IMG/VR virus record: IMGVR_UViG_3300014969_000001
Location: 1-64,000 of that record
Direction: 5' to 3' (one strand)
From: a virus
Lineage: Duplodnaviria > Caudoviricetes
Length of the DNA stretch: 64,000 bases
Shown: one piece after another, positions 36,882-54,139 of the stretch
Position numbering within the stretch: position 1 is the stretch's first letter
How the letters are laid out: every line of letters begins with the position of its first letter
Notes under the pieces: generated by a model
What the model saw: the letters and a program-made list of their open reading frames with translations, nothing else
Databases searched by the model: none
Told to the model about the DNA's origin: nothing
Program-made: the position numbers and the translations under genes

Positions 36882-38333
36882 CTAGTACAATAAATGGTAA
36901 TCCCTTAATTCATTGAATCGCTCATCACAGCCAAGCAGAATATCATTGCCGGCTTTACCATCACGGTTCTTCTCATTGATAAGGATCAGCTTACCCTTCG
37001 TGCTCCAGCCTTTCATGCCATCATAATCGATTGCCATAAAATGCCGGAAAGGGCGCCATGTCATGCATACTACATCCGACTTAGCCTCTATACCTACCGA
37101 CTCCATGAGCAAGCCTTTATTCGGACGATAGAATACTTTCTTCTGTGCTTCCCCTTTCTCCGCTTCCTTAGTCAGTTGCGAGAGAACGATGGCTGTATCC
37201 TTATTATCACGGGCAAAGGACTTCATCACATCCATGATAGAGTCTACCTCACGACGAGTATCAAAGCTCCCTTTCTCAACCTCTCCCAAATGGTCAAGGA
37301 TCTTCACAACGTGCTTATCCCGATACTTCAGCGAGTGCATCTTGCCTTTAGATTTCAGCTTCTTGGAATTGAGAGTGAGATATTCAATATCTAATGGCCA
37401 GCTAGTAACTTCTTTATAAGCATCAAGCAATCTATCTCGCTCTGCATCTGTAAGAGGCTTAACTATCAGCTCACCATTGTCATACTTCGCACCTTGATTA
37501 GTCAGCTGATGCTCCGTTAGCTGTGCCACATTTGTGATCAGACGAGTAACCACTCGCTCTTCAGACATTTCCAGTGAGAAGAATTGGATGCGTGTGTGGT
37601 TCGCTTTAATCGTCATTGGATTCTCCGGACCATATCGTCTACAGAGCCGACATATCAGGTCAATACAAAACATCGTCTTGCCTGAACCGGGGGAACCACC
37701 GAAAGTATAAACACGATCTCTCTTAAACCCCCCGAACTGCATATCCCATGCTTTAAGGCCAGTCATTAATCCGGGGATATTCTTATCAGGATTCAATGCC
37801 CGCTCTACCACATTCGTTGCAGCTGTCTTTACAGACATCCCCTGCTTACCAGTTTCAAGTTGCATCATGGCATTGGTGATTGTATCTGTCACCTTCTCCA
37901 TTGGTTCATTATCTAAGAACTGACGATAAGCCAGCTGAAAGATATTGTTGTTTATTATCCGCTGCTGGAAAGCAGAGCGAAGTATTTCTAGCATCTCCTT
38001 ACCGGACAACTCCACATAGACACTCATGATCTGCTTCAAAGTAGAACTAAGGAATTCATATTCCCCCTGCTTTGCGCGTGCTGTGATCGCATTAAACATT
38101 CCTGCTTCACTTACATCAAGACCTTGCAGAGCAAGCTCAGAGAGCCAGCCGAATAAAGTCCTCATGCCATTATGAGTGAAGAAAGTAGTTCTTGCATCTT
38201 CAAGCATCAACATCCTGTGATCCTGGTCGGCACGAATAAGGTATGCCATAAATTGTAATTCGATGTCAGCTCTCACGAGTCTTGCATCTAGCGCGTTGCG
38301 CACTTCCTGCGCATTTTCAAATTCACTATTCAT
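36882..38333 (-). CDS. dnaB: Replicative DNA helicase, DnaB family
   Basis: GGSPGSGKT Walker A, FFSLEMS, ILDHL, VLSQL, IEAKSDVV, KNRDG. Confidence 0.92.
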   Translation of the reverse strand: MNSEFENAQEVRNALDARLVRADIELQFMAYLIRADQDHRMLMLEDARTTFFTHNGMRTLFGWLSELALQGLDVSEAGMFNAITARAKQGEYEFLSSTLKQIMSVYVELSGKEMLEILRSAFQQRIINNNIFQLAYRQFLDNEPMEKVTDTITNAMMQLETGKQGMSVKTAATNVVERALNPDKNIPGLMTGLKAWDMQFGGFKRDRVYTFGGSPGSGKTMFCIDLICRLCRRYGPENPMTIKANHTRIQFFSLEMSEERVVTRLITNVAQLTEHQLTNQGAKYDNGELIVKPLTDAERDRLLDAYKEVTSWPLDIEYLTLNSKKLKSKGKMHSLKYRDKHVVKILDHLGEVEKGSFDTRREVDSIMDVMKSFARDNKDTAIVLSQLTKEAEKGEAQKKVFYRPNKGLLMESVGIEAKSDVVCMTWRPFRHFMAIDYDGMKGWSTKGKLILINEKNRDGKAGNDILLGCDERFNELRDYHLLY

Positions 38334-39976: not shown

Positions 39977-40363
39977 TTAATTGTTGAAAAGATGGATGTC
40001 ATAACGATCCATCAGCTTATCAAACTTCTTATGGAATTTACTTTCCTCCCTTATGTGATATCCTCTCTGTCCTAAGATCAGGAATACCCGTTCGCGTATG
40101 TTTTTCTTTACTTTCTTGGATACCCTCACCATATTGTGAATGAGGTATTGACCTTCTACAAAGTTCTTGAATGCGACATTATAGGCATATGCGGCATGCT
40201 CCTCTGTATCATAAGATCCCAGATGAACACGAACATTCTCTATGTAGAAAGATGTAACCCACTGTTCTGCTTTTGGAGAAAAACAGACTCCATAGAAGTC
40301 TGATGACGTTCTTCCAAGGAGTCTGCTTCTTACTTGCTTTGCGAGCTTTATATTCTTAGTCAT
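39977..40363 (-). CDS. AP2 DNA-binding domain protein
   Basis: SSDFYGVCF..W...HLGSYDTEEHAAYAYN. Confidence 0.8.
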   Translation of the reverse strand: MTKNIKLAKQVRSRLLGRTSSDFYGVCFSPKAEQWVTSFYIENVRVHLGSYDTEEHAAYAYNVAFKNFVEGQYLIHNMVRVSKKVKKNIRERVFLILGQRGYHIREESKFHKKFDKLMDRYDIHLFNN

Positions 40364-40682
40364 GCTCTTCCGGAGTATATTTGATAGGGCGGATCATATG
40401 ATGATTCTCAAGCCGCAGCTTCCAGAATTTATTATGCACCTGCATGGAAAACCGGTTTACATACATCGGCTTATCCTGCTGCTCCCGAACGCGGATAATC
40501 TTTTCCATTAGCTCCTCCGGATTCGTTTCCCCGCTATTCAAAGCAGCTAAAAGGATATTCCTTGCTTGCTGTGCTTCATTCGGATTGTCATTATAGCTAG
40601 AGCCATATTCAATCCGTAGCTTGTCATAAATTTCGTTTACATCTAGCTGACTGTACATTTTCTTAGTTGGCACTTTGTTCAT
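40356..40682 (-). CDS. Hypothetical protein
   Basis: 108 aa; first gene after a promoter-like motif. Confidence 0.7.
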   Translation of the reverse strand: MNKVPTKKMYSQLDVNEIYDKLRIEYGSSYNDNPNEAQQARNILLAALNSGETNPEELMEKIIRVREQQDKPMYVNRFSMQVHNKFWKLRLENHHMIRPIKYTPEEHD

Positions 40683-40717
40683 GTTCGTTTGTTATAGGCT
40701 AAAATTAATTTAGAAAA

Positions 40718-40730
40718 ATCAGAAGGAGAA
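40718..40730 (-). promoter_or_regulatory. Phage promoter-like motif copy 2 (TTCTCCTTCTGAT)
   Basis: 36 nt upstream of ATG 40682. Confidence 0.6.
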
Positions 40731-40737
40731 AAATAGC

Positions 40738-41826
40738 CTATCCAATCAATAGGCTATTGTAGTAATCTCTCAGTTCATATAATCCCCTTCCTTCGTTCTT
40801 CTTGATGATTGTCAGTAGTTTGGTCAGATCATTGGCCTTGCTATCCACTATCGGCTTATTGGCTGGGATTATCCCCCACTGGTTGTATAGGTTCTCTGCA
40901 GCAAGCTTTCCTGTATTCCGTGGCAAGTTGGTCTTCTTATCTATCTTGTCGAAGTCATCATCCATAATAGAATACCACACGGGAGCGACACTTTTCATAA
41001 GCTGAAAGGTGTTGAAGTCAAGCCTGGCATTCTCTCCTGACAATGGAATTGCCGGCAAGCCTATAGCAGATATGAATGATAGAGTATCCCGATTCCCTGC
41101 AGTAAGAAATCCTACTTCAGCTTTGGCCGGCAGCATATGCAAGCAGAAGATATCCTCAGTCGCCTTGATATTCGAGGTCCACTTGAATTGCGGATTGTCT
41201 GTGAATGGCCGGTAGATCTTCTTGCGCTTTGCTTTCGGGAATGTCCAGGCAAAGATGGGATTCTTAGCCTTCTCATAGATAGTTACCGCCTTTGGCTTAT
41301 CATCATCATAGCTGGTGATTGTAAAGCTGCTGCACACGGTAGTATAAGCCTGATCCAATACCTCCGGAGTAATGTAGCTCGCGGTAAAATATTCAAGCTC
41401 CTCTCGCTTCCAGGCTCTGTCATTGGTGACTATCTCGATCGGCTTATTAACCTTTGGCTTTGCATACATAGTGCGTAGATTAACCACGCCTGTAAAGCAG
41501 CCATTTTCTATGAGTAGAATCTTCTCCTTTGCATAAGCTACAGCCTGCCGGAATCCTTCACCTCCTGCATTCTCATCGAGTCCCAGCCATGCCTTTAGGA
41601 ATTGCCAATGATCACCTTCCTGGCTCTTACCACTCATATTGAAAGCGGAGTAATGCCACATCCCAGTTTTCTGACTTCTATAGACACGGAAACTCGGATG
41701 CTTCTCTTCCAGGAATGGCGAGCATATACTTTTGTTCGGAGCGAACTTTGGATCTTTGATACAGTGGTAATAGACTGCTAAACCGTAGTCTAACAACCTA
41801 TTCAATTCCTCTACAGACAGATTCAT
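40738..41826 (-). CDS. DNA primase (crAss-like, Zn-finger plus TOPRIM)
   Basis: ICSPFLEEKHPSFRVY..GD, KIYRPF, KWTSN, TAGNRDT, LSGEN, MDDD...G. Confidence 0.8.
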   Translation of the reverse strand: MNLSVEELNRLLDYGLAVYYHCIKDPKFAPNKSICSPFLEEKHPSFRVYRSQKTGMWHYSAFNMSGKSQEGDHWQFLKAWLGLDENAGGEGFRQAVAYAKEKILLIENGCFTGVVNLRTMYAKPKVNKPIEIVTNDRAWKREELEYFTASYITPEVLDQAYTTVCSSFTITSYDDDKPKAVTIYEKAKNPIFAWTFPKAKRKKIYRPFTDNPQFKWTSNIKATEDIFCLHMLPAKAEVGFLTAGNRDTLSFISAIGLPAIPLSGENARLDFNTFQLMKSVAPVWYSIMDDDFDKIDKKTNLPRNTGKLAAENLYNQWGIIPANKPIVDSKANDLTKLLTIIKKNEGRGLYELRDYYNSLLIG

Positions 41827-41827
41827 A

Positions 41828-42223
41828 CTATCCTGGCAATAATGGCTTGAACTTCGTGTTCTTAATGGCTTCTATATGATTTGCTGTGCTGCCATCTTTC
41901 ATATTGACAGCATCCATCCAGCTAATCTTTCGGAGTGCATCAGGTAAGCCATTAGCCATTATTGCGGGGCGGGATTCCACCTTATAGCAATCATCGACGA
42001 TAATATTTCCTTCATCTATTATAACCTGGTTCTTAATCCCCAATAGCTTTAGCGATAATCGCTTGAGGAATGTAGGTCTATAAATAAATGAGGTAACGAT
42101 AAATTCTGTAATCTCCCCTTCCTTACAGAACCCTTTTAATTCCTGTGGTGGATCTACAAACATTACTGAGAATGGCGGATCTGGAATTCCTGCAAAGTGG
42201 GAGTTTTTGATGAGGTTGTTCAT
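41828..42223 (-). CDS. Hypothetical protein
   Basis: 131 aa ORF; out-of-frame ATG 13 nt upstream. Confidence 0.6.
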   Translation of the reverse strand: MNNLIKNSHFAGIPDPPFSVMFVDPPQELKGFCKEGEITEFIVTSFIYRPTFLKRLSLKLLGIKNQVIIDEGNIIVDDCYKVESRPAIMANGLPDALRKISWMDAVNMKDGSTANHIEAIKNTKFKPLLPG

Positions 42224-42267
42224 TGAATGATGGCATAACGTTAGTTTTATTTTATTGAAACGAAATA

Positions 42268-42280
42268 ATCAAAAGGAGAA
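42268..42280 (-). promoter_or_regulatory. Phage promoter-like motif copy 3
   Basis: TTCTCCTTTTGAT in intergenic DNA. Confidence 0.65.
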
Positions 42281-42289
42281 AAACACTCA

Positions 42290-42565
42290 CTAATTCTTAT
42301 TCCATCGCGTCTTAAAAATGGCGCTATCCCCGGCAACAATGCGATAGTCAGGACGACGGGTGAATACTGGCTTTAAGGTCGGATATTCATGGCTGCATAT
42401 TGCGCCACATGCCCGACACCAGTACACCGTCGGCTGACTAAAGCCGGATGCTACAGAGAATATTTCTACGGAATTATGGTAAGGCCCGAACGGGCAGTTT
42501 GGATCTGGTGGAAACAGAAACTTCTTAACCGCTCTAAGAAGGCGGCGATATTTGTGTACTAACAT
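42290..42565 (-). CDS. Small putative Zn-binding protein
   Basis: CPFGPYH...WCRACGA. Confidence 0.6.
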   Translation of the reverse strand: MLVHKYRRLLRAVKKFLFPPDPNCPFGPYHNSVEIFSVASGFSQPTVYWCRACGAICSHEYPTLKPVFTRRPDYRIVAGDSAIFKTRWNKN

Positions 42566-42610
42566 TCGGCATAATGTTTAGTGGTTAATAAAATTTATTG
42601 TAATACAAAA

Positions 42611-42800
42611 TGTTCCGGTGGGATTCTTACCCACATCTATTTCTGAGAATGGCAAACAGAAATATATACAGCCTACTCAGGACTAAGTTCGGGATTGCTA
42701 AAGATGCAACAAAATAGCAAGCCCATTGTAACCCTGCCATTTCACTTGGGGTTTCACCACTGGACTACGTTACAGTTTCACGAGGGGGTGCGCCCCTCTT
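42611..42800 (-). ncRNA. Putative structured ncRNA (multi-stem, loop-loop pairing, T-arm-like 3' end)
   Basis: At least 5 stems within a 280-nt gene-free gap; 7-bp loop-loop complement; strand inferred from context. Confidence 0.5.
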
Positions 42801-42844
42801 TCTGACACGGGCATAATGTATGTATCTATCGGTTGCAAGATAGA

Positions 42845-43138
42845 TTAAAAGTCAATATCCTGCAACGGCTCTTCTGTAGGTTTCTTCTGCCATGCAGGAA
42901 CCTGGTCCTTTGGAACACCATAGAAACTTTTGGCATCCTCATCATAGCGAAAGTCTTTCAGATAGTAGTGGTTCTCTCGATTGGCTTCAGAATTACCTTC
43001 TTTAAAGTATTCATCAAGCCCGTGATGATGAAAGAATTCAGCAAGATTATCCGCTTGCAACGGGTTTTGCACATAGAATGTAACAGTAAAAGGCAGAACT
43101 ACTTCAGTATCTGCCGGAGTATCAAATATATTGCTCAT
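42845..43138 (-). CDS. Hypothetical acidic protein
   Basis: 97 aa ORF ending QDIDF. Confidence 0.7.
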   Translation of the reverse strand: MSNIFDTPADTEVVLPFTVTFYVQNPLQADNLAEFFHHHGLDEYFKEGNSEANRENHYYLKDFRYDEDAKSFYGVPKDQVPAWQKKPTEEPLQDIDF

Positions 43139-43207
43139 ATAAATTGTTTTATAATTGGATGAATTTTCTCAACTTTAAGAAATTAGTTTGCGTTTAATCT
43201 TATATAT

Positions 43208-43357
43208 GCCGGAAAGATATTGGGCTACGGTTTAAATCATTTCGATATCATGTTCAGATGGCGCTGAACTAACGGCTTAAAGTTATTCGAACCAGCTATC
43301 ATTGCCTTCGGGCTTTTTTAGCTGGTTCACTTTTTATATGCAATATATCGAATAACT
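43208..43357. other. Nested inverted repeats / structured intergenic element
   Basis: AGTTATTCGA..TCGAATAACT, GAACCAGCTA..TAGCTGGTTC, GCC-TTCG-GGC, GTTCAG..CTGAAC. Confidence 0.45.
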
Positions 43358-43358
43358 C

Positions 43359-43922
43359 TCACTTCTTCAAGGACTTACTAATTTCCTTGTCAATTAATTG
43401 ATCATAAAATAAAGGTGCAGAATCTAATAGCTTGGCCCTAGTCTTTTCAACTATCTTCTGCTGCTTCTTCTTTTCCTTTGCTTTCTTAATAGCCCACTTT
43501 TGTTTATCAAGGAATTGCTCATAGGCATGCCAGTCATCATTTATTACTAACATTCTCCACTTTGTTTCAAGGCGCTTCCAAGCAGGATCACCAAGCCGCG
43601 GTGCCTGGTCATTCATCTTGGATTCCCATAGCGTGATGAACTTCTGCAGCTCATATAACTGCATCCATCCATCATTGCTTACCCTGAATTGCCCGGTTAG
43701 AGAGGATACTTTTTCTTTCCTCTTTTGTACTAACCAGAACTCACTCAGCGTCATATTACCAAGCCCATGTATAATGTCCACTCTGGAATTGAAATGCTCC
43801 TGGTAACGCGCTAAATCCTTCAGAGGGATATTGCCTAAGAGTGTGCTTTCCGGCATCTTCTCTTTCAGCCAGTTCCTGATATCCTCCGGATACAGGATCT
43901 TATCATAAGTAAGTAAGTTCAT
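43359..43922 (-). CDS. Hypothetical protein coupled to the PRTRC ThiF gene
   Basis: 187 aa; ATGA overlap; C-terminal APLFYDQL. Confidence 0.7.
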   Translation of the reverse strand: MNLLTYDKILYPEDIRNWLKEKMPESTLLGNIPLKDLARYQEHFNSRVDIIHGLGNMTLSEFWLVQKRKEKVSSLTGQFRVSNDGWMQLYELQKFITLWESKMNDQAPRLGDPAWKRLETKWRMLVINDDWHAYEQFLDKQKWAIKKAKEKKKQQKIVEKTRAKLLDSAPLFYDQLIDKEISKSLKK

Positions 43923-44755
43923 ATCTTTGGTACTGGAATATTTGCTTGTAGATCACTTTCTAAATTCAGATAGAAGCCGTGGCGTTCCATGTGGACCTTA
44001 CGAAATAGCTGCCATATTAATCTCATTCCCCGAGTGGCAAGCTCCGAGTTAATGAACAGATCCTGGTGAGCCAATGCCTCTGCCAATGAACAACTCGGCT
44101 CATTGGTTACATCTTCTGGCTCCGGTTCCCACAACTCGGGATGCAATTCGAATAGATGAGGAAGTTTACCATTAAAGCACAACTCCTCTGCCAAGTGCGA
44201 AGGAACTTCCGGCTGTTGAATATCTCCGAATGTTCCCATGATTGCCTGACCTGAATTCTTGCTATTGCCAAAGTCCAGCCAGTAATACAAAGAACTCTCC
44301 CTTGCCCGCTGGCTACCCTGATTCCTTAACTGCTCTGCAGCATCCAAAGCTACTGTATGAAATATCTCCTGTCTGGCCACTCTATTATCCACACAGCTGA
44401 TAAGGATATTCGGAAGATAAAACATCTGCTCACAGGCTGTAATCTCATCGAATCTTTCCGGTACCGCTCTCCAGTTAAGGCCAAAGTGATTTGCTCTGCT
44501 TATCAAAGCTTCAGCCTTGCTCATTCCCACTTCCGCTGGAAAGAATAGCTGTCGGCCAAGATTTGCCGGTGATACTTCATCAGGATCGAATGCAGTTACA
44601 TCAAGGCCAGGATGACCAAGAGCCTTCAATGACAAATGGATCTTGATAAGATGGCTGAGCACATGGGAGCCAGTTCCTCCCACACCCACCAAAGCTACAC
44701 GCAAAGGATGCGTGGGCCCTAAAATATATGTCGCTGTTGCGTGTTTCGTTATCAT
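43919..44755 (-). CDS. PRTRC system ThiF (E1-like) protein
   Basis: VGVGGTGSH, FDPDEVSPANLGRQLF, ISCVDN, WLDFGN, PSCSLAEALAHQDLFIN. Confidence 0.92.
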   Translation of the reverse strand: MITKHATATYILGPTHPLRVALVGVGGTGSHVLSHLIKIHLSLKALGHPGLDVTAFDPDEVSPANLGRQLFFPAEVGMSKAEALISRANHFGLNWRAVPERFDEITACEQMFYLPNILISCVDNRVARQEIFHTVALDAAEQLRNQGSQRARESSLYYWLDFGNSKNSGQAIMGTFGDIQQPEVPSHLAEELCFNGKLPHLFELHPELWEPEPEDVTNEPSCSLAEALAHQDLFINSELATRGMRLIWQLFRKVHMERHGFYLNLESDLQANIPVPKI

Positions 44756-45591
44756 AATTGATTAAATGGCTTTAATACTTTCGGTACCCGACTATCACTT
44801 AATGGAATCAATAAGATTGATGGATAACCCTTAATTCCAGAACGCTTTTCCATTAGATTCCAGAATTGAATAAGTGTACCTCTCCACCGTTTAGGTCTTG
44901 GAATACCATGCTCTGCTGTAAAGTATGATCCCCAAAATGCGCGGGAATATTCCTGCATTATCCAGGTGAAGTCTACCTTCTCAGTCATGCTGATCTTTGC
45001 AGTTCCCAAACATACACGCCCATCACCCGACACATTCCAGAAAGGAGCATTACAAAGCTGAAAGGATAACGTACCATCTTCATCACGCTTCGGCTGCTTT
45101 TTCATCGCATAAACATAGAGCGTGTCGCCATAAACTAAGAAAAGCATATGTGGAGTCGTTGCTGTAAAAGAATCCTCCTCACGCTTCTCATTCATCCTGT
45201 GAGAGATTACCCTTCTCTTGGAAGGCTCCCACCAGCAGCATACTACTGTGGCATCCTCATCATAAGCGAAAAGCATATTCGGCGGGATAGGCTTTCTCAA
45301 TTCAAACTGTGTGGCCACCGTATCGCCATCGCTGGATACACGGCTTCGCTGCTCCAACACACTCATAAACTTAGCACAGTTCTCCGCAGTCAATGGCATC
45401 GCTTCACCAAAGCCGAAGTTAGACCGACCCGGTATGCCCTTCATTAAATGCATCGCCGGAAATACTTCGCAATCCTCCGGACCATAAGGCCGGCTATATA
45501 ATACCAATGCTGCATGAGGAAACAGCGGGCTTACCGTCATCTTATCGTAGGTAGCATTCGGGGTTTTTATTGTAGATGTATCTTGTTGCAT
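44752..45591 (-). CDS. PRTRC system protein B (prokaryotic E2 family D)
   Basis: PHMLFLV..LYVYAMK..APFWNV..GRVCLG..FWGSYFT. Confidence 0.85.
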   Translation of the reverse strand: MQQDTSTIKTPNATYDKMTVSPLFPHAALVLYSRPYGPEDCEVFPAMHLMKGIPGRSNFGFGEAMPLTAENCAKFMSVLEQRSRVSSDGDTVATQFELRKPIPPNMLFAYDEDATVVCCWWEPSKRRVISHRMNEKREEDSFTATTPHMLFLVYGDTLYVYAMKKQPKRDEDGTLSFQLCNAPFWNVSGDGRVCLGTAKISMTEKVDFTWIMQEYSRAFWGSYFTAEHGIPRPKRWRGTLIQFWNLMEKRSGIKGYPSILLIPLSDSRVPKVLKPFNQL

Positions 45592-47119
45592 TTTTATAGA
45601 ATTTCAAATCTTTGAGTGATAAATTATAATCCCTTTCCCTTACACATTCAGGAGCCATTGACAGCAATGTAAGCAATGGACCATAGCACTTAGTTGCAGG
45701 TCGTATCGGCTCATTTGCTTTGAAGGCATGACCATAGCACCAGCCATGATCTGGCAGCTCATAGCTCTCCTGAAGAATCGTTTGTTTGTGGTATTTGTCA
45801 AATTGATTACCTGCTTCAAAAGCAGTTTCAAAGTAAGACTCCGGATCCATACACCCATCATTGTAATCGATATTCGGATTATCAATCATGAATCCTGGCC
45901 AGTTTTTGGCGGGCTCTCGCTTAATCATTCTGAAAGCTGAGGTAGCTAATGCATGAATCTGCGGATCACATGGCAAATCCTTCTTTAAAAGCATCTCTAC
46001 CACCATCTCTGAATATCGCTTGGTCTTATTCAGCCATTGCTGCATATAAGTATTGAAGTCCATCGTGCGATAATAATTCACACAAGCCATCAATTCAGCT
46101 TTGAATTCATTGGCCACTCTCTTTGCTTCACGCTTAGCAAATCGCATGATCTTTAGCAGCCTGGTATTCGAAGTGCGGTGCATTTGCGAGTGCATTTTAT
46201 ACCATTCCTTCCGCTTCTTATCAAAGATTGGAATAGCATTCTGATAAATATTATCACACACAAGCTTTATCTGAGCTGCAGTAATAGTGCGGATACTAAA
46301 AGTATTTTCTTCCTTCTTCGTTATTCTCTTTGCTACTATATCCTCCTCTTCCGGAAAAGTAATATGATAATCTGTACCATAAGTAGCCATTGTATCATAA
46401 AGAAGGTGAATCATATTCTCATGGTACTGGCTCTTTCTCCAATGATCTTCCGTCGCTTCTGCAGGAACATACATTCCCATCAGCAGCCGGCTTCTAATCA
46501 TCTGCACAGTATGAAGCAGCAATGTTCCCGAATACTTATCCTTCTGCATCAGCCTGTGGCACCAGAAGTAATTGAAGGGAGTAGGATTATTAGCTGGCAT
46601 CGACCACATATAATTGTAGCCATAGTAAATCTGATTACCATTTCCTAACACCCACACACGAGTAGGATAGCTCTGACCGAATGAACCATGCGTATGAGCA
46701 CATGAATTCAACCGCCAGTTACTCCATCCGGTACCGTGATTATGGAGATAGTTATGGAACCATGCCGCCATCCAAGTAATATCCGCAGGAAGAGAAAGCT
46801 GACCGCATACCTCATTATAAGCATCGAGGAATCCCGGGGCATCCCGCAATTCCTCTCTGAAGCTATCAGCTATCTCATCTGTACAGTTAAAAGGATTCTC
46901 ACCATAATGGTCATCCTCCAATAGATATAAGGGTGGAAGGCTTAGAACAGGATTGGCAAGCCAATTGTCCTGACTAACCGCGGTTTCCGATTGTTGTCGG
47001 GGATTCTGTTTTCTGCTAAGAAGTTGGCAATAGTTGCTCCGATTAATTTTGCTTCTTGTTCCTCGGCTGGAAATTCTTGTGGCAACTCTGGCTTTGGGTT
47101 GTCTGAATATTTTTTGCAT
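45542..47119 (-). CDS. PRTRC-associated protein (position of protein F)
   Basis: 525 aa ORF between the Ub-like and E2-like genes; assignment by synteny only. Confidence 0.5.
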   Translation of the reverse strand: MQKIFRQPKARVATRISSRGTRSKINRSNYCQLLSRKQNPRQQSETAVSQDNWLANPVLSLPPLYLLEDDHYGENPFNCTDEIADSFREELRDAPGFLDAYNEVCGQLSLPADITWMAAWFHNYLHNHGTGWSNWRLNSCAHTHGSFGQSYPTRVWVLGNGNQIYYGYNYMWSMPANNPTPFNYFWCHRLMQKDKYSGTLLLHTVQMIRSRLLMGMYVPAEATEDHWRKSQYHENMIHLLYDTMATYGTDYHITFPEEEDIVAKRITKKEENTFSIRTITAAQIKLVCDNIYQNAIPIFDKKRKEWYKMHSQMHRTSNTRLLKIMRFAKREAKRVANEFKAELMACVNYYRTMDFNTYMQQWLNKTKRYSEMVVEMLLKKDLPCDPQIHALATSAFRMIKREPAKNWPGFMIDNPNIDYNDGCMDPESYFETAFEAGNQFDKYHKQTILQESYELPDHGWCYGHAFKANEPIRPATKCYGPLLTLLSMAPECVRERDYNLSLKDLKFYKNATRYIYNKNPECYLR

Positions 47120-47144
47120 TCGTCTGGCATAACGGGTTTACAAT

Positions 47145-47411
47145 TTACAATTTTGAGAATTCTGTTTCGATTTCTTCAAGGCGATCTTCAGTATGTTCTT
47201 CAATAAGCTTGAATAGCTTTTCTATGAACTTCCTATCACTATTAGAAATATCTTTGGTAATAGAAAAAGAACGGCCACCATTTCCTCTGATTGATATAGA
47301 AGCAGGAGAAGAATCATACTCCTTTATTTCTTCAATCATTTTCATGCGTTTCTTCATTTCTAATAATTCGTCGCGATTAGCCATCGCTTTCATGTAGGTG
47401 ATTTCTTCCAT
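47145..47411 (-). CDS. Hypothetical protein
   Basis: 88 aa ORF inside the PRTRC cluster. Confidence 0.7.
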   Translation of the reverse strand: MEEITYMKAMANRDELLEMKKRMKMIEEIKEYDSSPASISIRGNGGRSFSITKDISNSDRKFIEKLFKLIEEHTEDRLEEIETEFSKL

Positions 47412-47423
47412 ATCTCTTAAATG

Positions 47424-47446
47424 AAAAGGGTGACTTTCGCCACCCC
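47424..47446 (-). terminator. Intrinsic terminator
   Basis: Minus strand GGGTGGC-GAAA-GTCACCC-TTTT. Confidence 0.7.
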
Positions 47447-47461
47447 TTGATAATCTATTTC

Positions 47462-47659
47462 TTATTTCAATTTTGCTATTTCTTCATTACATTCTTTAAT
47501 AGCAAAATCATCTATTAAAGCATTGTGTAATGGAGCATTATCTACATATCGTTTAGCAGCCCAATCTTTCCAAGACTTTTTGATTTCCTGAATCTTCGCA
47601 TCTCTGTCATCACGCTTGCATTCAAAACTCCATTCCTCTCTATCAAAATGACCTGCCAT
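47462..47659 (-). CDS. Hypothetical protein
   Basis: 65 aa; TAATG-coupled to the Ub-like gene. Confidence 0.6.
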   Translation of the reverse strand: MAGHFDREEWSFECKRDDRDAKIQEIKKSWKDWAAKRYVDNAPLHNALIDDFAIKECNEEIAKLK

Positions 47660-47883
47660 TATCCTTTCTCCCCTGCTGCCGGTGAGAACAAATACTCTAC
47701 TCCTGTAGCTGTTGGGATTGGACCTTGCAGACTTGCAGTAGCGATATCAGGATGGACATCCATGAAGAATTTGCGAAGTTGCTCCATGCTCATATCCGGA
47801 TTTACATCTGGTAGCATTATCGTTACATCTTTGCCTTTTTCCTTCTTTGTATATTTTATTGATCTTTCAAGTGTGAGTACCAT
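47659..47883 (-). CDS. PRTRC system protein C (ubiquitin-like)
   Basis: LER..Y...LPDVNPDMS.EQ...HPDIATASLQGP...YLF...GEKG with C-terminal Gly. Confidence 0.88.
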   Translation of the reverse strand: MVLTLERSIKYTKKEKGKDVTIMLPDVNPDMSMEQLRKFFMDVHPDIATASLQGPIPTATGVEYLFSPAAGEKG

Positions 47884-47910
47884 TGTTTTATTTTTTGAGG
47901 TATTGAATTA

Positions 47911-48615
47911 CTATAATTGTGTTTGTCCCCCTGCTCCCGTTACTCTATACTTCTCAGCTTGCTCGGCTAATCCTGCTGCTTGCTCATGCGTCATAGCGAA
48001 TCCCATAGCGAGCTTCTGTGCTTCAATCACATTCTGGCCACCGATCTTCATCTTATCCATAAGCGAGTTGTATTTAGCTGGACTCATCGCCGGCTTTGGA
48101 GCTTGTGGCGCTGCAGGTCTTGGAGGAGTGGGCGCAAATCCTGGGCGTGGTGGTGTCGGTGCTGGTGGTCTTGCGATATTCTGAACTACACCAACTGGAG
48201 CTACAGGAGAACCTTCATGCAGCGATAAAGCATGCTGTTCTTCTTCACCTGCTTCATCCTCTACAGCTTTCTTGGCAGATGCCAGGCTCTTAGTTGCATT
48301 CTTCGCCGACGAACCTTTACTGATAGCATTTGTAGCTTTATCGATAGACTTAATACCAGAAGCCACAGTGCTGAATCTGCTCATTGCCTCATTAAGTGGA
48401 TTCAATAATTCAGTAATGAAACTGAAATCAAGCTTCTCCGGAGTATCAGTCAATGCCATTGGCTGGATCTTACCAAAGGCATCTTTTACATCCTGACTTG
48501 CAGAAGCAGAAATTCTTGGAATCACACCTACAGTAAGCTTATCCCCGATTTTAAAGATTGTCAATGTAAGGCTTTCACCTTCGTTCAATTGGTCTGCGAT
48601 TGTTTTAAACAGCAT
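47911..48615 (-). CDS. PRTRC system protein E
   Basis: MLFKTI...LTVGVIP...PMALTDTPEKLD..F...L.P N-terminal domain plus low-complexity tail; start moved to 48615. Confidence 0.8.
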   Translation of the reverse strand: MLFKTIADQLNEGESLTLTIFKIGDKLTVGVIPRISASASQDVKDAFGKIQPMALTDTPEKLDFSFITELLNPLNEAMSRFSTVASGIKSIDKATNAISKGSSAKNATKSLASAKKAVEDEAGEEEQHALSLHEGSPVAPVGVVQNIARPPAPTPPRPGFAPTPPRPAAPQAPKPAMSPAKYNSLMDKMKIGGQNVIEAQKLAMGFAMTHEQAAGLAEQAEKYRVTGAGGQTQL

Positions 48616-48655
48616 AAGTTTTGCTTTTTTATGATTAGAAATTATTACTAAAAAT

Positions 48656-48697
48656 ATCAAAAGGAGAAAGAACCCCACAAATCTGCAGGGTTCTTTC
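48656..48697 (-). promoter_or_regulatory. Terminator hairpin fused to phage promoter-like motif copy 4
   Basis: Minus strand GAAAGAACCC..GGGTTCTTTC running directly into TCCTTTTGAT. Confidence 0.7.
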
Positions 48698-48700
48698 CAA

Positions 48701-51700
48701 TTAAAATAATGAAGTCTGTACAGCTACTGCCGGAAGCTTCCTTGTAACTCTTGGCGGTGGAGTCAGCCTGATAGCATCAGAAGGAGTCACTATCATGACC
48801 TCGGGCCTCTCAGTAAAGAGTGGCATCGTCGATGCTTCCTTTGCGTCATCATCCTCCTCTCTTTCCGGCTCTTTTGGTAAACCTATGATGCCTGGAATAT
48901 CCGTCGGGAAATCTACCAGTGTGATAAGATGGCTGATATCATACTGATCAAGTTGCGGTCCTTCAGTAAGCTCTTCATGCTTCTCCTGCTTTGGCTCCTT
49001 CAGGAGTGGCGTTTGGTCACCTTGCTTATCCTCAATAGCGATTGCTCCACGCTGCACAATAAACTGCTTCAGCATTTCTTCTTCGCCTTGCTCATTGTCT
49101 GGATTGATATAGGTCGTTGCCTGGCTATAATTAATAACCTCACGCTTCACTATACCCATGATGGCAAGCTCCTTCGCTTCTGTTGGTGTGATGTGCGTTA
49201 GTACAAATCTCTCCAACCTGCTGACAGTTCGCTTCACTACAGCCTGGCCAGTGCCAACGAGAACACGATAACCATCATCAAGCTTCTGCCGGATCTGTTC
49301 ATAAGAAAGATAGATACCTCCCTTTACCATTCCAAGATTCTGCATAGTCTTCATCATAAGGTCATGTGGAAGCACGCGCCCTATGAATCGCTCTCCTGGA
49401 AGCTGAACTGCAATAACTCTGTAATCAGAATCATGCTCTTCCTCATCGAAGAAGTTGCGCTGCTCACTTCTTACTGCAATGTTCGCCCAAACCGGAATGA
49501 TGGCGCCAGTAATTACATGAAGCGTTTGCTCCTTGATAGATGGCGTAGCTTCAATCTGCTTATTCCAAAGCTCCATACCAAGCGATGTAGGTATAGATTC
49601 ATCACCGGTACCATTCCGCATACTGATATCTAACTCCTCCCGAGAATAGAGCATTGCTGAAGTCGGACCTACCCTGCGATAGATTTCCTTCTTAGAGCCA
49701 TCGCCTTCAATGGTCGTGCTTACATGCGTATGCACAAAGATATTCCCTGATTTCTTATTCTTATAGAATCCTTGGAAATGACCACCACCAAGCTTCTGCT
49801 CTCCGGAAGAAGAAAGATAAACACCCTCACGAGCATGCTCCGCAGTTACAAACTTCCGCTTAACCTGCGTCTTTAACTCCACAAGATAAGTCTTTGCTCC
49901 TGTTTCAGCATCCTTGTGAATCAGCTGTTGTGATACTTTCTCTATCTTATCAGCTTTCAGATACTCCATACCGGTTTCAAGCTCACCTCTCTCCCTTGCT
50001 TGCTCGATAAGCATGACCATGATATTATACCACACCTCAAACACGTTCTTCTGCATATCACAATGCAGCGCAAGTAATCGATTCAGGAACTGAGTAACTG
50101 GTGGCATCTTTGGAGCATCACCACCACCACCTTCAAGCTTGCTCTTAGCAAATCCCATCTGCCGACAAACTTCAGTATAGCTAAGGCCTTGCTCTGCAAA
50201 TTCACCATAGCGAAGTCCTCTGAAGAAAGCCTGTATTGCTGATGATGCATAAGGCCCTTCCAGGTTATCCTCCGGCTTAAATATCCCTCCGGATGCAGCC
50301 TTACGATTACCTTTGGTGAGAGAACCTAATTGCTCAATCCTGCGAGCTATAGAAGTGATAAATCGCTTCTGCCCTGGCAAATCTGTAGTAGCGAGCTTAT
50401 ACTTCGGCGGCACGCGCTGATTATTCCTGTGCGACCTTCCTAAGCCCTGAATAGCCTTATCAGCAATCCATCCCATCTGACCACCATAATGAACACGACG
50501 CTGCTGATTGAGAGAGTTCAGGTCTGAATGAAATGAACGACCAGTACCACCTGCTTCCGAGAAGATGATGATACGGCGCTTGCCAGCCATAAACTCACGG
50601 GTTTCAGCCGAGCACTTGCGCTTTCCGCGTGTTTCCCTTACAAGCTTATGATCTACATTTACATATCGCTCGCTTCTGCCTGTAACCTCTGCTACATTCT
50701 CATGGCCGAAGTGCTCCAAGATCATATCCAAAGCACCTTTCGGCACCTGAATATCTGCAATCTTTAAGAGCAATTCATCACGCATCTGAATAGCCATTGG
50801 ATCCAATAAGAATTCCTCCATTGGCACAAGTTCCGGCTTCTTAGTGACAGGATTAAGCTTAACCTCCATCTTCTGATTGCCATCTTCATCCAACACAGCT
50901 TTCTTCACTGGCTCCGAAGATGTGGTATTCCCTGTCCACACTTCTTCATACATCACAATCGGATAATGCTTTCTGATCAAGTCAATCAATGCATCCTTTG
51001 GACTTATATCCAGGTTGTCATAGCCATCACCGCTAATGATAGCATTCTTCACCGCTCTACCAGTTGCTGCTTCTTCTGTATTTACTAGCTGAAAGACGCA
51101 TGAATTATCCTGAGCCAACTCCATTTCCATATCCTTCAGGACTGTAGGCATCTGCAATGAAGTAAGCAGCTGATTAAAGAAGCGCTGCATAGTACCATAG
51201 AACTGCGCAAGCACTTGTCCTTTAGCCTGGCGATTCTGCCCTGCACCAGTTAGCTCTAAAGCTTCCTCGATATAGACAAGAGCCAGCTGCCAGCCATCAC
51301 AAGCATCATCATAGATCTTCCGCTGCGCTTCTGTAAGCTTGTGCTCCAATACCTCAAACTCAGTACCCGAATAGGATAAAGAAGTCGCCCGATATAAACC
51401 AAGCGCTTTCATATCCTTAGCGATTAATTCCATTCCGAGCATGCCAGTAGCATTTACTTTGCTCACGAAGGCTTCCGTATCAGCAAAGGCATTTGAGTGC
51501 GGCCCTGCTAATCCCATGCGCTCTACAGCATAAGCCAGATTGCTTACTTCCGTTGCTGCAGTAGCTGATGCCATAGCTATTACAGCTTCCGGCATGGCAT
51601 TGATAAGCTCAATACCCTGCACCGCTTTCTTAGCTACCTTCTTGGCACCACGCTTACCAGATTCAGATAGGGAATTCTTCAGCTCATGGCTTTCATCATA

Positions 51701-53461
51701 GAGAATGATATCCGGCTTCCAATCTACAAGCTGCTTAAACCGATCGGTTCCTTTCGTCTTGACAGTAAGCACACCATTCTCATCCCGCGTTTCCTTAATG
51801 TGCTGCTTCCGAGATGCCATCATGTAAGTTGAGAAGATGATTCCCGATTCGAGTGTTATATCCCCTTTCAATTTCTCATGGGGAATGATAAACTTCTCAT
51901 CGCCGCCTATCCATTTCCAATCCCGGATTGCATCATTAATCAGCTCACCGGTCTTTGAAACCCACAAGATCTTCCGCATACCCTTCATCATGCAAGCCAT
52001 CGCCACAGCTGCTAACTGCGCTCCCTTGCCTACTCCGGTTCCATCGCCGACGAGGAAAGTCTTTCTTGTCCTTGTACCAGGAATCCTTTGCGCATTAGAA
52101 TTCATGGCATAGAACAATCCTTCCAGCTGCACATCAGACAGACGGCCGCTAGTGATAATCTCCCTCGGAAAGCTAAACTTCACTCTTGGAATAGGCGGCT
52201 TTACTGCTCGCATAGCATCGGATTCTACCAATGCTACTTTATGCGGCTTTGCTAATGGATGATAGAGAAATGGCTTATAGTTCATGAAAAGCTCAATCTC
52301 CTCATCTTCCTCTATCTTCAACTGTGCCATCACTGCTTTCCGTATTGGCGGTGGTGGTGGAAGCACCGGCTTACGGATTGGTGGCGGCGGCGGTAATACA
52401 GGCTTAGCTGGCATTTCGGCTGGATATTCCTCGATTCTTCCAGGAAGCGGAACGATCGCTTTCACTTCACGCTTAGCTCGCTTTCTGAGCGGATCTAATA
52501 ATGTGAATAGTTCACCCACTCTCTCCACCTGACCAATATAAACCGGTTCATTTACAGTCGGTCCGGTTTTATCGATGATTACTAATCGTGTATTAAATGA
52601 GGTACCGAATTTCTTATAGAAGTTCTCTGGTACTCCAATATTACATCTGATAGTATATCCAAGTGATATCTTCTTCCAGAATGCCTTATAGCTATCTGCG
52701 GCAAAGTGCATCCCTGCATCTCCATCTCTGCCTCCTGGAAGGATTGCTACTACCCGGCCACCATCGGCAAGCTGCATTAAAGCTTTCTCTAAATGGTTCG
52801 ATGCCACATAGCGCGATGATACCCCTTTCATTCCCTCGCTTGAGAATGGAGGATTCATTAGGATTACATCTGGCTTCAGCTTTGGATAATAGGCGAAGAT
52901 CTGGCATGCATCACTCCGCTGCAGCATCTTAAACTTATCATGCTCCCCTACTGGCAAAGCATTTATCAGATCCTTTACAAGCGTAAAGCGATAAGGCTCA
53001 TATTCATTTACCCATAGCGCCTTTGGATGCGCGAGAGAAGCGAATGTAGCCAGGCCAAGCAATCCTGCTGATGGCTCCATAACTGTATCATCCGGCATAA
53101 TCCCTGCAGCCCACGCTGCTATATAAGCAAAGTGAGGCGGCGTAGAGAACTGCTGAAAGGCAAGCATCTGATCAGTCCTGGCATTGTGGGTAGGAAGCTT
53201 ATTCAGATCATCTACTATCTGCTTGTAGAATATAGCAGCACGATCAAGCCCGACAGCCAGAGAAAAGGTGCCGGCCGACTGATGGCGTTCTATAATATAC
53301 AAGTTGTGGGCTATCTGTAAAGCATCCCACAGTTGTGTGCGGTCACTTACATAACCGATAGCGTCGGCCAGCTTATATAGCTGGTCATGGGACAGGTCTT
53401 TCTGCCCCACGAACTGGCGCTTTATTACTTGCGCCAGTTCAATGAGTTGTTCATTCTTCAT
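48701..53461 (-). CDS. N6-adenine methyltransferase fused to strawberry-notch SF2 helicase
   Basis: QQFSTPP, MEPSAG, MNPPFS; LSDVQLE, GDGTGVGKG, DESH, AEVTGRS, SEAGGTG, IQGLGRSHRNNQ. Confidence 0.9.
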   Translation of the reverse strand: MKNEQLIELAQVIKRQFVGQKDLSHDQLYKLADAIGYVSDRTQLWDALQIAHNLYIIERHQSAGTFSLAVGLDRAAIFYKQIVDDLNKLPTHNARTDQMLAFQQFSTPPHFAYIAAWAAGIMPDDTVMEPSAGLLGLATFASLAHPKALWVNEYEPYRFTLVKDLINALPVGEHDKFKMLQRSDACQIFAYYPKLKPDVILMNPPFSSEGMKGVSSRYVASNHLEKALMQLADGGRVVAILPGGRDGDAGMHFAADSYKAFWKKISLGYTIRCNIGVPENFYKKFGTSFNTRLVIIDKTGPTVNEPVYIGQVERVGELFTLLDPLRKRAKREVKAIVPLPGRIEEYPAEMPAKPVLPPPPPIRKPVLPPPPPIRKAVMAQLKIEEDEEIELFMNYKPFLYHPLAKPHKVALVESDAMRAVKPPIPRVKFSFPREIITSGRLSDVQLEGLFYAMNSNAQRIPGTRTRKTFLVGDGTGVGKGAQLAAVAMACMMKGMRKILWVSKTGELINDAIRDWKWIGGDEKFIIPHEKLKGDITLESGIIFSTYMMASRKQHIKETRDENGVLTVKTKGTDRFKQLVDWKPDIILYDESHELKNSLSESGKRGAKKVAKKAVQGIELINAMPEAVIAMASATAATEVSNLAYAVERMGLAGPHSNAFADTEAFVSKVNATGMLGMELIAKDMKALGLYRATSLSYSGTEFEVLEHKLTEAQRKIYDDACDGWQLALVYIEEALELTGAGQNRQAKGQVLAQFYGTMQRFFNQLLTSLQMPTVLKDMEMELAQDNSCVFQLVNTEEAATGRAVKNAIISGDGYDNLDISPKDALIDLIRKHYPIVMYEEVWTGNTTSSEPVKKAVLDEDGNQKMEVKLNPVTKKPELVPMEEFLLDPMAIQMRDELLLKIADIQVPKGALDMILEHFGHENVAEVTGRSERYVNVDHKLVRETRGKRKCSAETREFMAGKRRIIIFSEAGGTGRSFHSDLNSLNQQRRVHYGGQMGWIADKAIQGLGRSHRNNQRVPPKYKLATTDLPGQKRFITSIARRIEQLGSLTKGNRKAASGGIFKPEDNLEGPYASSAIQAFFRGLRYGEFAEQGLSYTEVCRQMGFAKSKLEGGGGDAPKMPPVTQFLNRLLALHCDMQKNVFEVWYNIMVMLIEQARERGELETGMEYLKADKIEKVSQQLIHKDAETGAKTYLVELKTQVKRKFVTAEHAREGVYLSSSGEQKLGGGHFQGFYKNKKSGNIFVHTHVSTTIEGDGSKKEIYRRVGPTSAMLYSREELDISMRNGTGDESIPTSLGMELWNKQIEATPSIKEQTLHVITGAIIPVWANIAVRSEQRNFFDEEEHDSDYRVIAVQLPGERFIGRVLPHDLMMKTMQNLGMVKGGIYLSYEQIRQKLDDGYRVLVGTGQAVVKRTVSRLERFVLTHITPTEAKELAIMGIVKREVINYSQATTYINPDNEQGEEEMLKQFIVQRGAIAIEDKQGDQTPLLKEPKQEKHEELTEGPQLDQYDISHLITLVDFPTDIPGIIGLPKEPEREEDDDAKEASTMPLFTERPEVMIVTPSDAIRLTPPPRVTRKLPAVAVQTSLF

Positions 53462-53479
53462 GCAGAATAAATTGATTAT

Positions 53480-54037
53480 TTAAACTTCGGTCATATAAAT
53501 GCTATCACCTTCCCGATGAGTATCATAAGGTTTTTGAAGAGCAATTTTAGCTAACCACTTCTTACTGTAACGATCTACAACAGCATGGCCTGTGTATTCA
53601 TTGATGTAGAATGGCTCCATGTTGTTGTCATCATTGGCAAATTCAGTATCCGTATCATGAACGAAGATAAGGCGCTCATTTTGCTCAAAATGAGGATTCA
53701 GGCTCTGCTCTTCAATAATATTACGAGCTACATCTATACCATCTTTATGGTACAAATTTAAGCAGGCATTACCATGAAAGCAGCCACCTTTCTCCATATC
53801 GGAAACGATACCGCAATCTTCCGGAAGCACTAATGTTTCCTTATTGAGTGCGATAAATGTTCCTTTACGCTTTCCGATTGGCACGATCTCCAGGCATAAT
53901 TCATCCTTTGAATTGAGTCCTGTGCTCTTAACCTTTCCACGAATAGAAGAAGTCATAGCCATTCCATTGATTGTGAAGGCTGCTACAATTTTGCCGAGAT
54001 AAGCGGCTCTTGGGATTTGATTTTCTGTGTTTGGCAT
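53480..54037 (-). CDS. Hypothetical protein
   Basis: Start moved to MPNTEN at 54037; FHGNACLNL and HAVVDR blocks. Confidence 0.7.
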   Translation of the reverse strand: MPNTENQIPRAAYLGKIVAAFTINGMAMTSSIRGKVKSTGLNSKDELCLEIVPIGKRKGTFIALNKETLVLPEDCGIVSDMEKGGCFHGNACLNLYHKDGIDVARNIIEEQSLNPHFEQNERLIFVHDTDTEFANDDNNMEPFYINEYTGHAVVDRYSKKWLAKIALQKPYDTHREGDSIYMTEV

Positions 54038-54065
54038 AACAGTTAGGTTTAAATTAATTTGAAAT

Positions 54066-54114
54066 ATCAAAAGGAGAAAAGACAACAAAAAAAGGGCAGC
54101 CATAAGCCGCCCCC
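54066..54114 (-). promoter_or_regulatory. Terminator plus phage promoter-like motif copy 5
   Basis: Minus strand GGGCGGC-TTATG-GCTGCCC-T7, then TTTTCTCCTTTTGAT. Confidence 0.7.
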
Positions 54115-54139
54115 TTAACCTTATATGTAATTTATGGTA

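Follow-up and report, generated by a model that had tools for sequence, protein, structure and literature searches.

The first 64,000 nucleotides of the IMG/VR virus record IMGVR_UViG_3300014969_000001 (hereafter the window) carry a group of genes of the PRTRC type (ParB-Related, ThiF-Related Cassette), which resemble the components of a ubiquitin-like conjugation pathway. Eight open reading frames (ORFs) share the minus strand across positions 43359-48678, and four of the eight match curated families: PRTRC protein E, a ubiquitin-like protein (Ubl), an E2-like carrier, and a ThiF-type E1. The genes for these four proteins are intact and lie close together or overlap, and none of the residues invariant across the family has been lost. 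An earlier note, made from the sequence alone, had identified a PRTRC-type ubiquitin-like cassette in a crAss-like phage at this position; the matches to PRTRC profiles and the crAss-type terminase, portal, and capsid genes of the carrier bear this identification out.

The gene for protein E (47911-48615, minus strand; 234 aa) starts with an ATG at 48615, and its product scores 44.7 bits against TIGR03741 (cut-off 37.95) and 41 bits against the Pfam family PF19556 (PRTRC_E; cut-off 26). A longer GTG-start ORF for E begins at 48678 and would read across the upstream motif described below. The Ubl (PRTRC protein C, Prok_Ub; 47659-47883, minus strand; 74 aa) has the C-terminus G-E-K-G and reaches 39.5 bits against Pfam PF14454 (Prok_Ub; cut-off 25) and 43.2 bits against TIGR03738, slightly below the cut-off of 45.95. 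For the E2-like carrier (PRTRC protein B, Prok-E2_D; 44752-45591, minus strand) the score is 79.7 bits with Pfam PF14460 (Prok-E2_D; cut-off 25) and 75.2 bits with TIGR03737, below the cut-off of 131.45, which is also missed by a Bacteroidota E2 homologue (89.5 bits). Because its homologues begin at the position of M18, the true start of this protein is probably M18 at 45540, one base past the stop codon of the preceding gene. The ThiF-type E1 (PRTRC system ThiF family protein; 43919-44755, minus strand; 278 aa) scores 248.5 bits with TIGR03736, above the cut-off of 144.75, and there is a 4-nt overlap between its start and the E2 stop codon.

The E1 and the E2-like protein were each aligned with 13 homologues (14 sequences per alignment), including those of the proteobacterial phage Dina. 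In the E1, the nucleotide-binding loop G24xG26G27xG29, the Mg/ATP residues D57, R68, K80, and D123, and also C121 and P220-S221-C222 are invariant, as are P183, N186, C194 (VCLG), and G196 in the E2-like protein. The candidate catalytic cysteines that had been picked out from the sequence, in the PSCS motif of the E1 (C222) and the RVCLG motif of the E2-like protein (C194), are intact and belong to these invariant residues. The glycine claimed for the end of the Ubl is equally secure: G-E-K-G stands directly before the stop codon, GxKG is conserved in 21 sequences with G71, K73, and the terminal G74 invariant, and all 21 proteins end exactly at that glycine. Judged from these alignments, PSCS, RVCLG, and the terminal glycine are the positions under the strongest constraint. 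When the E1 profile is compared with solved structures, its best relatives are the adenylation domains of UBA6, UBA1, UBA3, UBA5, and SAE2 (E about 1e-7; best 6e-8), and it matches ThiF (1e-5) and Cap2 (2.5e-4) less well than these conjugating E1s.

Protein E aligns with 20 homologues over its N-terminal ~75 aa. An AlphaFold2 (AF2) model has a block-mean predicted local distance difference test (pLDDT) score of 77-95 over residues 1-100, and Foldseek returned no PDB match for it at E <= 0.001. In most PRTRC E proteins of Bacteroidota the conserved ~75-aa N-terminal domain is accompanied by a helix rich in Lys and Glu, and the C-terminus is an acidic tail (..DDEENEEE) that recalls those of SSB; in place of the acidic tail, the E of the window has a proline-rich linker and a different C-terminus.

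The remaining four ORFs, of 65, 88, 525, and 187 aa, gave no family match in Pfam, NCBIfam, PHROGs, or PADLOC. The 65-aa ORF (p65; 47462-47659, minus strand), whose ATG overlaps the Ubl stop codon (TAATG), has no counterpart in related cassettes, and the 88-aa ORF (p88; 47145-47411, minus strand) has none by tblastn in 52 related loci. The 187-aa orphan (p187; 43359-43922, minus strand) is the final gene of the unit, with a start that overlaps the E1 stop codon by 4 nt; a search of 5.8 billion proteins retrieved only p187 itself, and the ESM Atlas gave nothing usable.

The slot between the Ubl and the E2-like protein is occupied by the 525-aa orphan (p525; 45542-47119, minus strand), which had been labeled "F-like". 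This label is not supported, as p525 matches no PRTRC_F model, no Pfam family such as alpha-hel2, and no homologue; the likeness is one of position only. Searches of 5.8 billion clustered proteins (word-indexed) and 1.84 billion representatives (HMMER) found only p525 itself, the ESM Atlas gave no usable match, and a single-sequence AF2 model had a pLDDT of 34 and was unusable. In other cassettes the slot is filled by PRTRC F (Dina) or by a ~380-aa protein X (Bacteroidota cassettes), which belongs to a highly variable family (mean column identity 26%). A relationship of p525 to the X family was rejected (hhalign against 16 X proteins, probability 2%), and so was one between the X family and Dina F (hhalign probability 0.2%). 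As far as these comparisons go, the slot is conserved and its occupant is not. Parts of p525 are covered by small contigs from independent soil runs (X4 and X5), and we therefore take it to be a real, persisting gene.

A promoter-like, phage-specific motif (TTTCTCCTTTTGAT..., 48655-48667, minus strand) lies about 40 nt before the E start codon. The form TCTCCTYTTGAT has nine matches in the window against 1.13 expected, one of them, at 48656-48667, just before E, and genome-wide the motif TTTTTCTCCTYYTGATT... has 18 matches against 0.2 in shuffled sequences. Of the 18 copies, 16 belong to the minus strand and range from 33,996 to 70,133; each of these precedes an ATG by 25-60 nt, and they often come straight after a hairpin and T-run. 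Copies flank the cassette on both sides, in addition to the one directly ahead of it. Placed in this way, the motif resembles a promoter specific to the phage, or a combined terminator and promoter, that would act for the entire non-structural arm. The earlier note had placed the cassette in the early region under a phage promoter motif. The motif is real and a copy precedes E, but "early" cannot be claimed, because the non-structural arm as a whole is served by it, primase and DnaB genes included. An extended form, TTTTTCTCCTYYTGATT(A/T)TT..GAAnTAAnT, has 16 well-placed copies, densest at 64.9-70.1 kb. The copy at 54065-54076 falls inside a listed 207-aa ORF (53480-54103, minus strand); since it lies inside the ORF as listed, this gene probably starts at an ATG near 54036. 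A scan with the sigma-70 consensus, which is ill-suited to Bacteroidota, found no excess of promoter-like sites (30 against 25.6 in shuffles).

Two hairpins bear on how the cassette may be expressed. The first (48665-48698, minus strand) closes the upstream methylase-helicase gene, and its T-run leads directly into the motif; it has a 15-pair stem with a free energy of -21.8 kcal/mol (z -5.2), and none of 200 shuffles was as stable. The second (47425-47448, minus strand), a candidate attenuator with a U-run, separates the E, Ubl, and p65 genes from those of the enzymes; it has a 10-pair stem with a GAAA loop, after which comes UUUUCAUUU, and its free energy is -15.3 kcal/mol (z -4.16, again with 0 of 200 shuffles as stable). 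An internal terminator had been proposed to follow the Ubl gene, and this hairpin answers to it in kind; its position is after p65, not directly after Ubl. The motif scan found no copy after the second hairpin, so that p88, p525, E2, E1, and p187 would be read-through products. It is reasonable to suppose from the position of the hairpin that E and the Ubl tag are made in excess over E1 and E2.

The carrier is listed in IMG/VR as a virus with direct terminal repeats and is rated 100% complete by CheckV; the genome is 101,590 bp long, and we found a 123-bp terminal repeat in it. PHROG profiles identify the large terminase subunit (TerL, phrog_6681), the portal (phrog_6547), and the capsid protein (phrog_11589). 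In tblastn searches with TerL, crAss-like phages dominate (uncultured cr phages and phages of Bacteroides and Cellulophaga), at only 23-28% identity. With these terminase, portal, and capsid matches, a ~100-kb genome, and a giant ORF, the carrier is a distant crAss-like phage. The giant ORF (10865-24919, plus strand; 4684 aa) is larger than usual even among crAss-like virion RNA polymerase genes, and a 473-aa protein with a polysaccharide lyase domain (30194-31615, plus strand; PF14099, E 5e-25) is encoded after the long structural operon. Queries with the primase and with the methylase-helicase retrieved no close relative of the phage from IMG/VR.

Metagenomes of soil and of the rhizosphere contain the phage sequence, and positions 40000-55000 of the window are tiled by small contigs of low depth that come from three further studies of such habitats (runs X2-X5). 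Contigs from X3 bridge both borders of the cassette (43135-43762 and 48533-48813), as do contigs from X5 (42627-43403 and 48254-48757), which belong to a 91-96% identical variant; the presence of this variant indicates that the phage lineage occurs in several soils. A chimeric contig, which the earlier note had named as a result that would overturn its proposal, can be excluded because the genome is complete with terminal repeats, contigs from other studies cross both borders, and the motif occurs on both sides of the cassette as well as before it.

The cassette lacks several components that define PRTRC elsewhere. Profile searches of the whole genome found no PRTRC_A (TIGR03735), Prok-JAB, JAB, or RadC, with the reservation that the TIGR03735 search is weak (control genomes were also silent), and no PRTRC_F (TIGR03742). 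ParB_N was likewise without a match, in a search that was positive in 11 of 14 control genomes. Thus the absence of a JAB peptidase and of ParB, which had been reported for the window, holds for the whole 101.6-kb genome. Neither a rhodanese nor a reverse transcriptase was found in it.

The absence of the peptidase has a counterpart in the end of the Ubl. In phage Dina, protein A consists of DUF2016 and Prok-JAB, and the Ubl has a 65-aa tail beyond its Prok_Ub domain. The Ubl stops at the glycine in the 21 JAB-less cassettes but has this tail in the JAB-bearing one, a contrast of a single cassette against 21. On this ground the simplest reading of the sequences is that JAB-less cassettes produce their tag in finished form, so that a maturing peptidase would be unneeded.

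ThiF homologues 36-48% identical to that of the window occur on 37 IMG/VR viral contigs and in 15 genomes, the latter all from Bacteroidota (Sediminibacterium, Chitinophagaceae, Bacteroidaceae, Prevotella, Dysgonomonas, Prolixibacteraceae, Flavobacteriaceae, and Tenacibaculum). Loci with enough flanking sequence share the order E(~210)-C(69)-X(~380)-B(~234)-ThiF(~257), in which B and ThiF are directly adjacent. Prok-JAB was not found in five whole viral records that carry the cassette (CheckV completeness 89-100%); two of these are proviruses, and another, of 97.9 kb, has terminal repeats. None of these five large records has a crAss-type terminase or portal, and Terminase_6C is likewise absent; because of this, their phage nature rests on the IMG/VR and CheckV classification and on phage-type neighbors. 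In a tree of ThiF proteins the window copy forms a long branch (1.13 changes per column) of unresolved position, nearest to a Sediminibacterium group.

Among 50,697 GenBank phage records, this ThiF is carried only by BgVeeders33, the Ralstonia phages Dina (two records) and YO105_4, and two gut fragments, none of which is a crAss-like genome. We found no earlier record of the cassette in a crAss-like carrier. PRTRC-type ThiF proteins are also present on 356 plasmid records in PLSDB. The earlier note had described PRTRC cassettes as established on plasmids and integrative and conjugative elements (ICEs), and this framing overstated the novelty of the locus, as PRTRC cassettes in phages have already been annotated (Ralstonia phage Dina, RefSeq) or published (PMC13366799; bioRxiv 10.64898/2026.10.01.756045).

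In 2006, Iyer, Burroughs, and Aravind predicted mobile operons of E1, E2, JAB, and Ubl genes and speculated that these might serve for addiction or protection (PMC1779556). The Burkholderia (B. gladioli) prophage AB2, BgVeeders33, and Dina are described as carriers of the cassette in a 2026 paper, which calls the function of the cassette unstudied and treats it as a "partitioning cassette" (PMC13366799). A preprint from the same year reports PRTRC protein B of a Phocaeicola vulgatus prophage as a hotspot where sequence variation recurs, which the authors credit to a diversity-generating retroelement (bioRxiv 10.64898/2026.10.01.756045). This prophage probably belongs to the JAB-less group of Bacteroidota. 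A retroelement of this kind was rejected for the present genome, which is without a reverse transcriptase.

The cassette lies between the primase (40738-41826) and DnaB (36882-38333) genes on one side and an SbcC-like gene on the other. Directly upstream, and separated from it by the strong terminator described above, is the gene for a 1586-aa protein (48701-53461, minus strand). Its N6-methylase domain shares 27-30% identity with phage proteins that carry the annotation "DarB-like antirestriction" and is fused to AAA_34 and Helicase_C_4, a helicase of the strawberry-notch type. The flanks of six related cassettes contain genes for SSB, AAA_24, DnaB_C, ParB_N, DAM-like-phage, and GNAT-phage-like proteins. 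Enzymes of the S-adenosylmethionine (SAM) cycle (SAM synthetase, LuxS, and PNP_UDP_1) are also found in related flanks, as are YWFCY in one locus and RadC in one.

On balance, and with modest confidence, we read the locus as a working, phage-adapted, reduced PRTRC-type conjugation unit. Its chemistry is, as far as sequence comparison can tell, likely to be Ubl conjugation. The E1 would adenylate the free C-terminal Gly74 of the Ubl and hold the Ubl as a thioester on Cys222 of the PSCS motif, from which it would be handed to Cys194 of the E2-like protein (in VCLG, with PFxN upstream). The E2-like protein would then join the Ubl to lysines of target proteins. A Ubl made in finished form would need no JAB for maturation, and a phage whose genome is without a peptidase would not reverse the tagging. 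Because of the hairpin past the E-Ubl-p65 genes, E and the tag would remain more abundant than the enzymes, whose genes are reached by read-through, and p525, in the fastest-evolving slot of the cassette, would be the best candidate for choosing the target.

As to what the unit is for, we suggest tentatively, and at well below an even chance, that it aids establishment of the phage by tagging host defense or DNA-handling proteins. This suggestion is made because a DarB-like methylase-helicase adjoins the cassette, because the neighborhoods of related cassettes are those of replication and DNA modification, and because the slot protein is hypervariable, as protein B of the gut prophage is reported to be. 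A bolder version, which we regard as doubtful, is that a virulent crAss-like phage uses one-way, peptidase-free tagging as a weapon, with p525 acting as an E3-like module that guides tagging toward immune or DNA-handling proteins of the host and with E and the tag in excess through the internal attenuator.

Several points weigh against the reading of the locus as a working conjugation unit with such a purpose. Thioester transfer and conjugation to lysine are proposed by analogy only, and the anti-defense role rests on neighborhood and analogy. No target, E3, or peptidase was identified, and our literature search found no biochemical test of any PRTRC cassette or of its role. The E2-like protein and the Ubl score below NCBIfam's own cut-offs, and no solved structure matches the profile of the E2 (family D) or of the Ubl (Prok_Ub). 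PADLOC yields no known defense or anti-defense family beyond weak Rossmann-fold matches, the runs listed for the phage sequence include no RNA run, and the proteins of 525, 187, 88, and 65 aa are uninterpretable.

Given the neighborhoods of the cassettes, the main rival keeps the same conjugation chemistry and changes its purpose: the tag would be placed on the phage's own or the host's DNA-handling proteins and would regulate replication, partition, or maintenance of the phage genome. Protein E would be a candidate substrate, being co-expressed with the tag and having, in most relatives, a Lys/Glu-rich helix and an SSB-like acidic tail. The primase, DnaB, and SbcC-like genes around the cassette fit this explanation, as do the SSB, AAA_24, DnaB, and ParB_N genes that adjoin related cassettes, and the canonical PRTRC is defined by a ParB partner and bears the name of a partitioning cassette in the literature (PMC13366799). 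However, this label is a habit of annotation, not a result, the genome has no ParB, and the E of the window is without the acidic tail. Nor is a need for partition obvious in a virulent-looking crAss-like phage, and we judge the explanation to be unlikely.

Defense carried by the phage against competitors, sulfur transfer, and inert cargo are all less likely. In the first of these, the cassette would bring about superinfection exclusion by tagging the structural proteins of competing phages, as the host Bil system does. The known bacterial E1/E2/Ubl operons, Bil and Cap2 of CBASS (an anti-phage signaling system based on cyclic oligonucleotides), serve anti-phage immunity, the ThiF protein has weak PADLOC matches to CBASS E1-E2 and BilD, and many related copies lie in proviruses. 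However, the PADLOC matches span only the Rossmann segment (13-27 bits), and the E2-like protein and Ubl have none; a JAB peptidase, absent from the phage genome, is part of Bil and of CBASS type II operons. Moreover, the cassette has the same motif as the phage's own non-structural genes, and no integrase or lysogeny module was noticed on the cassette arm, where no search was aimed at such genes. Taken together, these points make a role in exclusion distinctly unlikely.

Sulfur transfer would require the ThiF-like enzyme to adenylate the small protein for conversion to a C-terminal thiocarboxylate, as with ThiS and MoaD, which would supply sulfur for a cofactor or for nucleic-acid modification. 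A ThiF fold paired with a beta-grasp protein ending in glycine is indeed common to ThiF/ThiS and MoeB/MoaD, and some related loci contain DNA-modification and SAM-cycle genes. ThiS and MoaD end in Gly-Gly, whereas the Ubl ends in a single glycine after lysine. The conserved E2-like protein with its invariant cysteine has no part to play in sulfur transfer, the genome is without a rhodanese, and the E1 profile is nearer to conjugating E1s than to ThiF, all of which makes a sulfur carrier improbable. Finally, it is very improbable that the cassette is passive cargo from a Bacteroidota element that no longer functions in the phage, for although the F/X slot, the post-Ubl region, and the E tail have all been replaced by orphan sequence and the E1 sits on its long branch, all ORFs are intact with every family-invariant residue kept, the genes are preceded by the upstream motif of the phage itself, their start and stop codons are coupled, and the cassette is retained in the 91-96% identical variant from another study.

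If a conjugation unit directed at the host is indeed at work here, it would mirror the Bil system of hosts, in which phage tails receive the tag, and would give the PRTRC family its first function. PRTRC-type cassettes are widespread (on the PLSDB plasmids and on dozens of Bacteroidota viral contigs) and have been predicted to act in ubiquitin-like conjugation since 2006. The present copy appears to be wired into the regulation of a complete crAss-like phage, given its own copy of the upstream motif, its coupled genes, its conserved catalytic core, and its persistence in several soil samples, and this strengthens the view that mobile elements, and not only their hosts, deploy ubiquitin-like tagging. 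The JAB-less design, with a ready-made tag and a hypervariable slot protein, leads to testable predictions on maturation and on the choice of target. The practical value of the window copy is limited because the phage is uncultured; culturable carriers exist in Ralstonia phage Dina, the B. gladioli prophage AB2, and the P. vulgatus prophage.

Comparison with known systems places the cassette within the PRTRC family and at some distance from its better understood relatives. Like ThiF/ThiS and MoeB/MoaD, it pairs an adenylating enzyme of the ThiF fold with a small beta-grasp protein whose last residue is glycine, and it differs from them in its E2-like cysteine protein, in the absence of rhodanese or biosynthesis genes, and in ending with K-G, not G-G. 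The logic of Bil (BilABCD) and CBASS Cap2/Cap3, the only bacterial systems of this kind with experimentally proven conjugation, is the same: an E1 adenylation domain, an E2 cysteine, and a C-terminal glycine on the protein that is transferred. PADLOC similarity to these systems is confined to the E1 Rossmann segment (E1-E2 and BilD), and, in contrast to them, the cassette has no JAB partner and is carried by a phage, not by the host.

With canonical PRTRC (TIGR03734-TIGR03742; on plasmids, ICEs, and some temperate phages) the cassette shares the E, C, B, and ThiF families and the order E-C-[slot]-B-ThiF. The genes gp02-gp07 of Ralstonia phage Dina (NC_055026), in the RefSeq order E-C-F-B-A-ThiF, encode the same invariant cysteines and G-x-K-G. 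Unlike canonical PRTRC, the cassette of the window is without protein A (DUF2016 and JAB), F (alpha-hel2-like), ParB, and D, and its Ubl has no tail to be trimmed; its slot holds the p525 orphan, two small ORFs, and a terminator, and its B and C proteins fall below the NCBIfam cut-offs. The nearest relatives in sequence are the JAB-less cassettes of Bacteroidota proviruses, phage contigs, and genomes, which have the same gene order, no JAB between B and ThiF, and a Ubl that ends at glycine. Set against these, the copy described here has an unrelated orphan in place of X, insertions of p65, p88, and the internal terminator, a proline-rich linker instead of the acidic tail of E, a ThiF on a long branch, and a crAss-like carrier.

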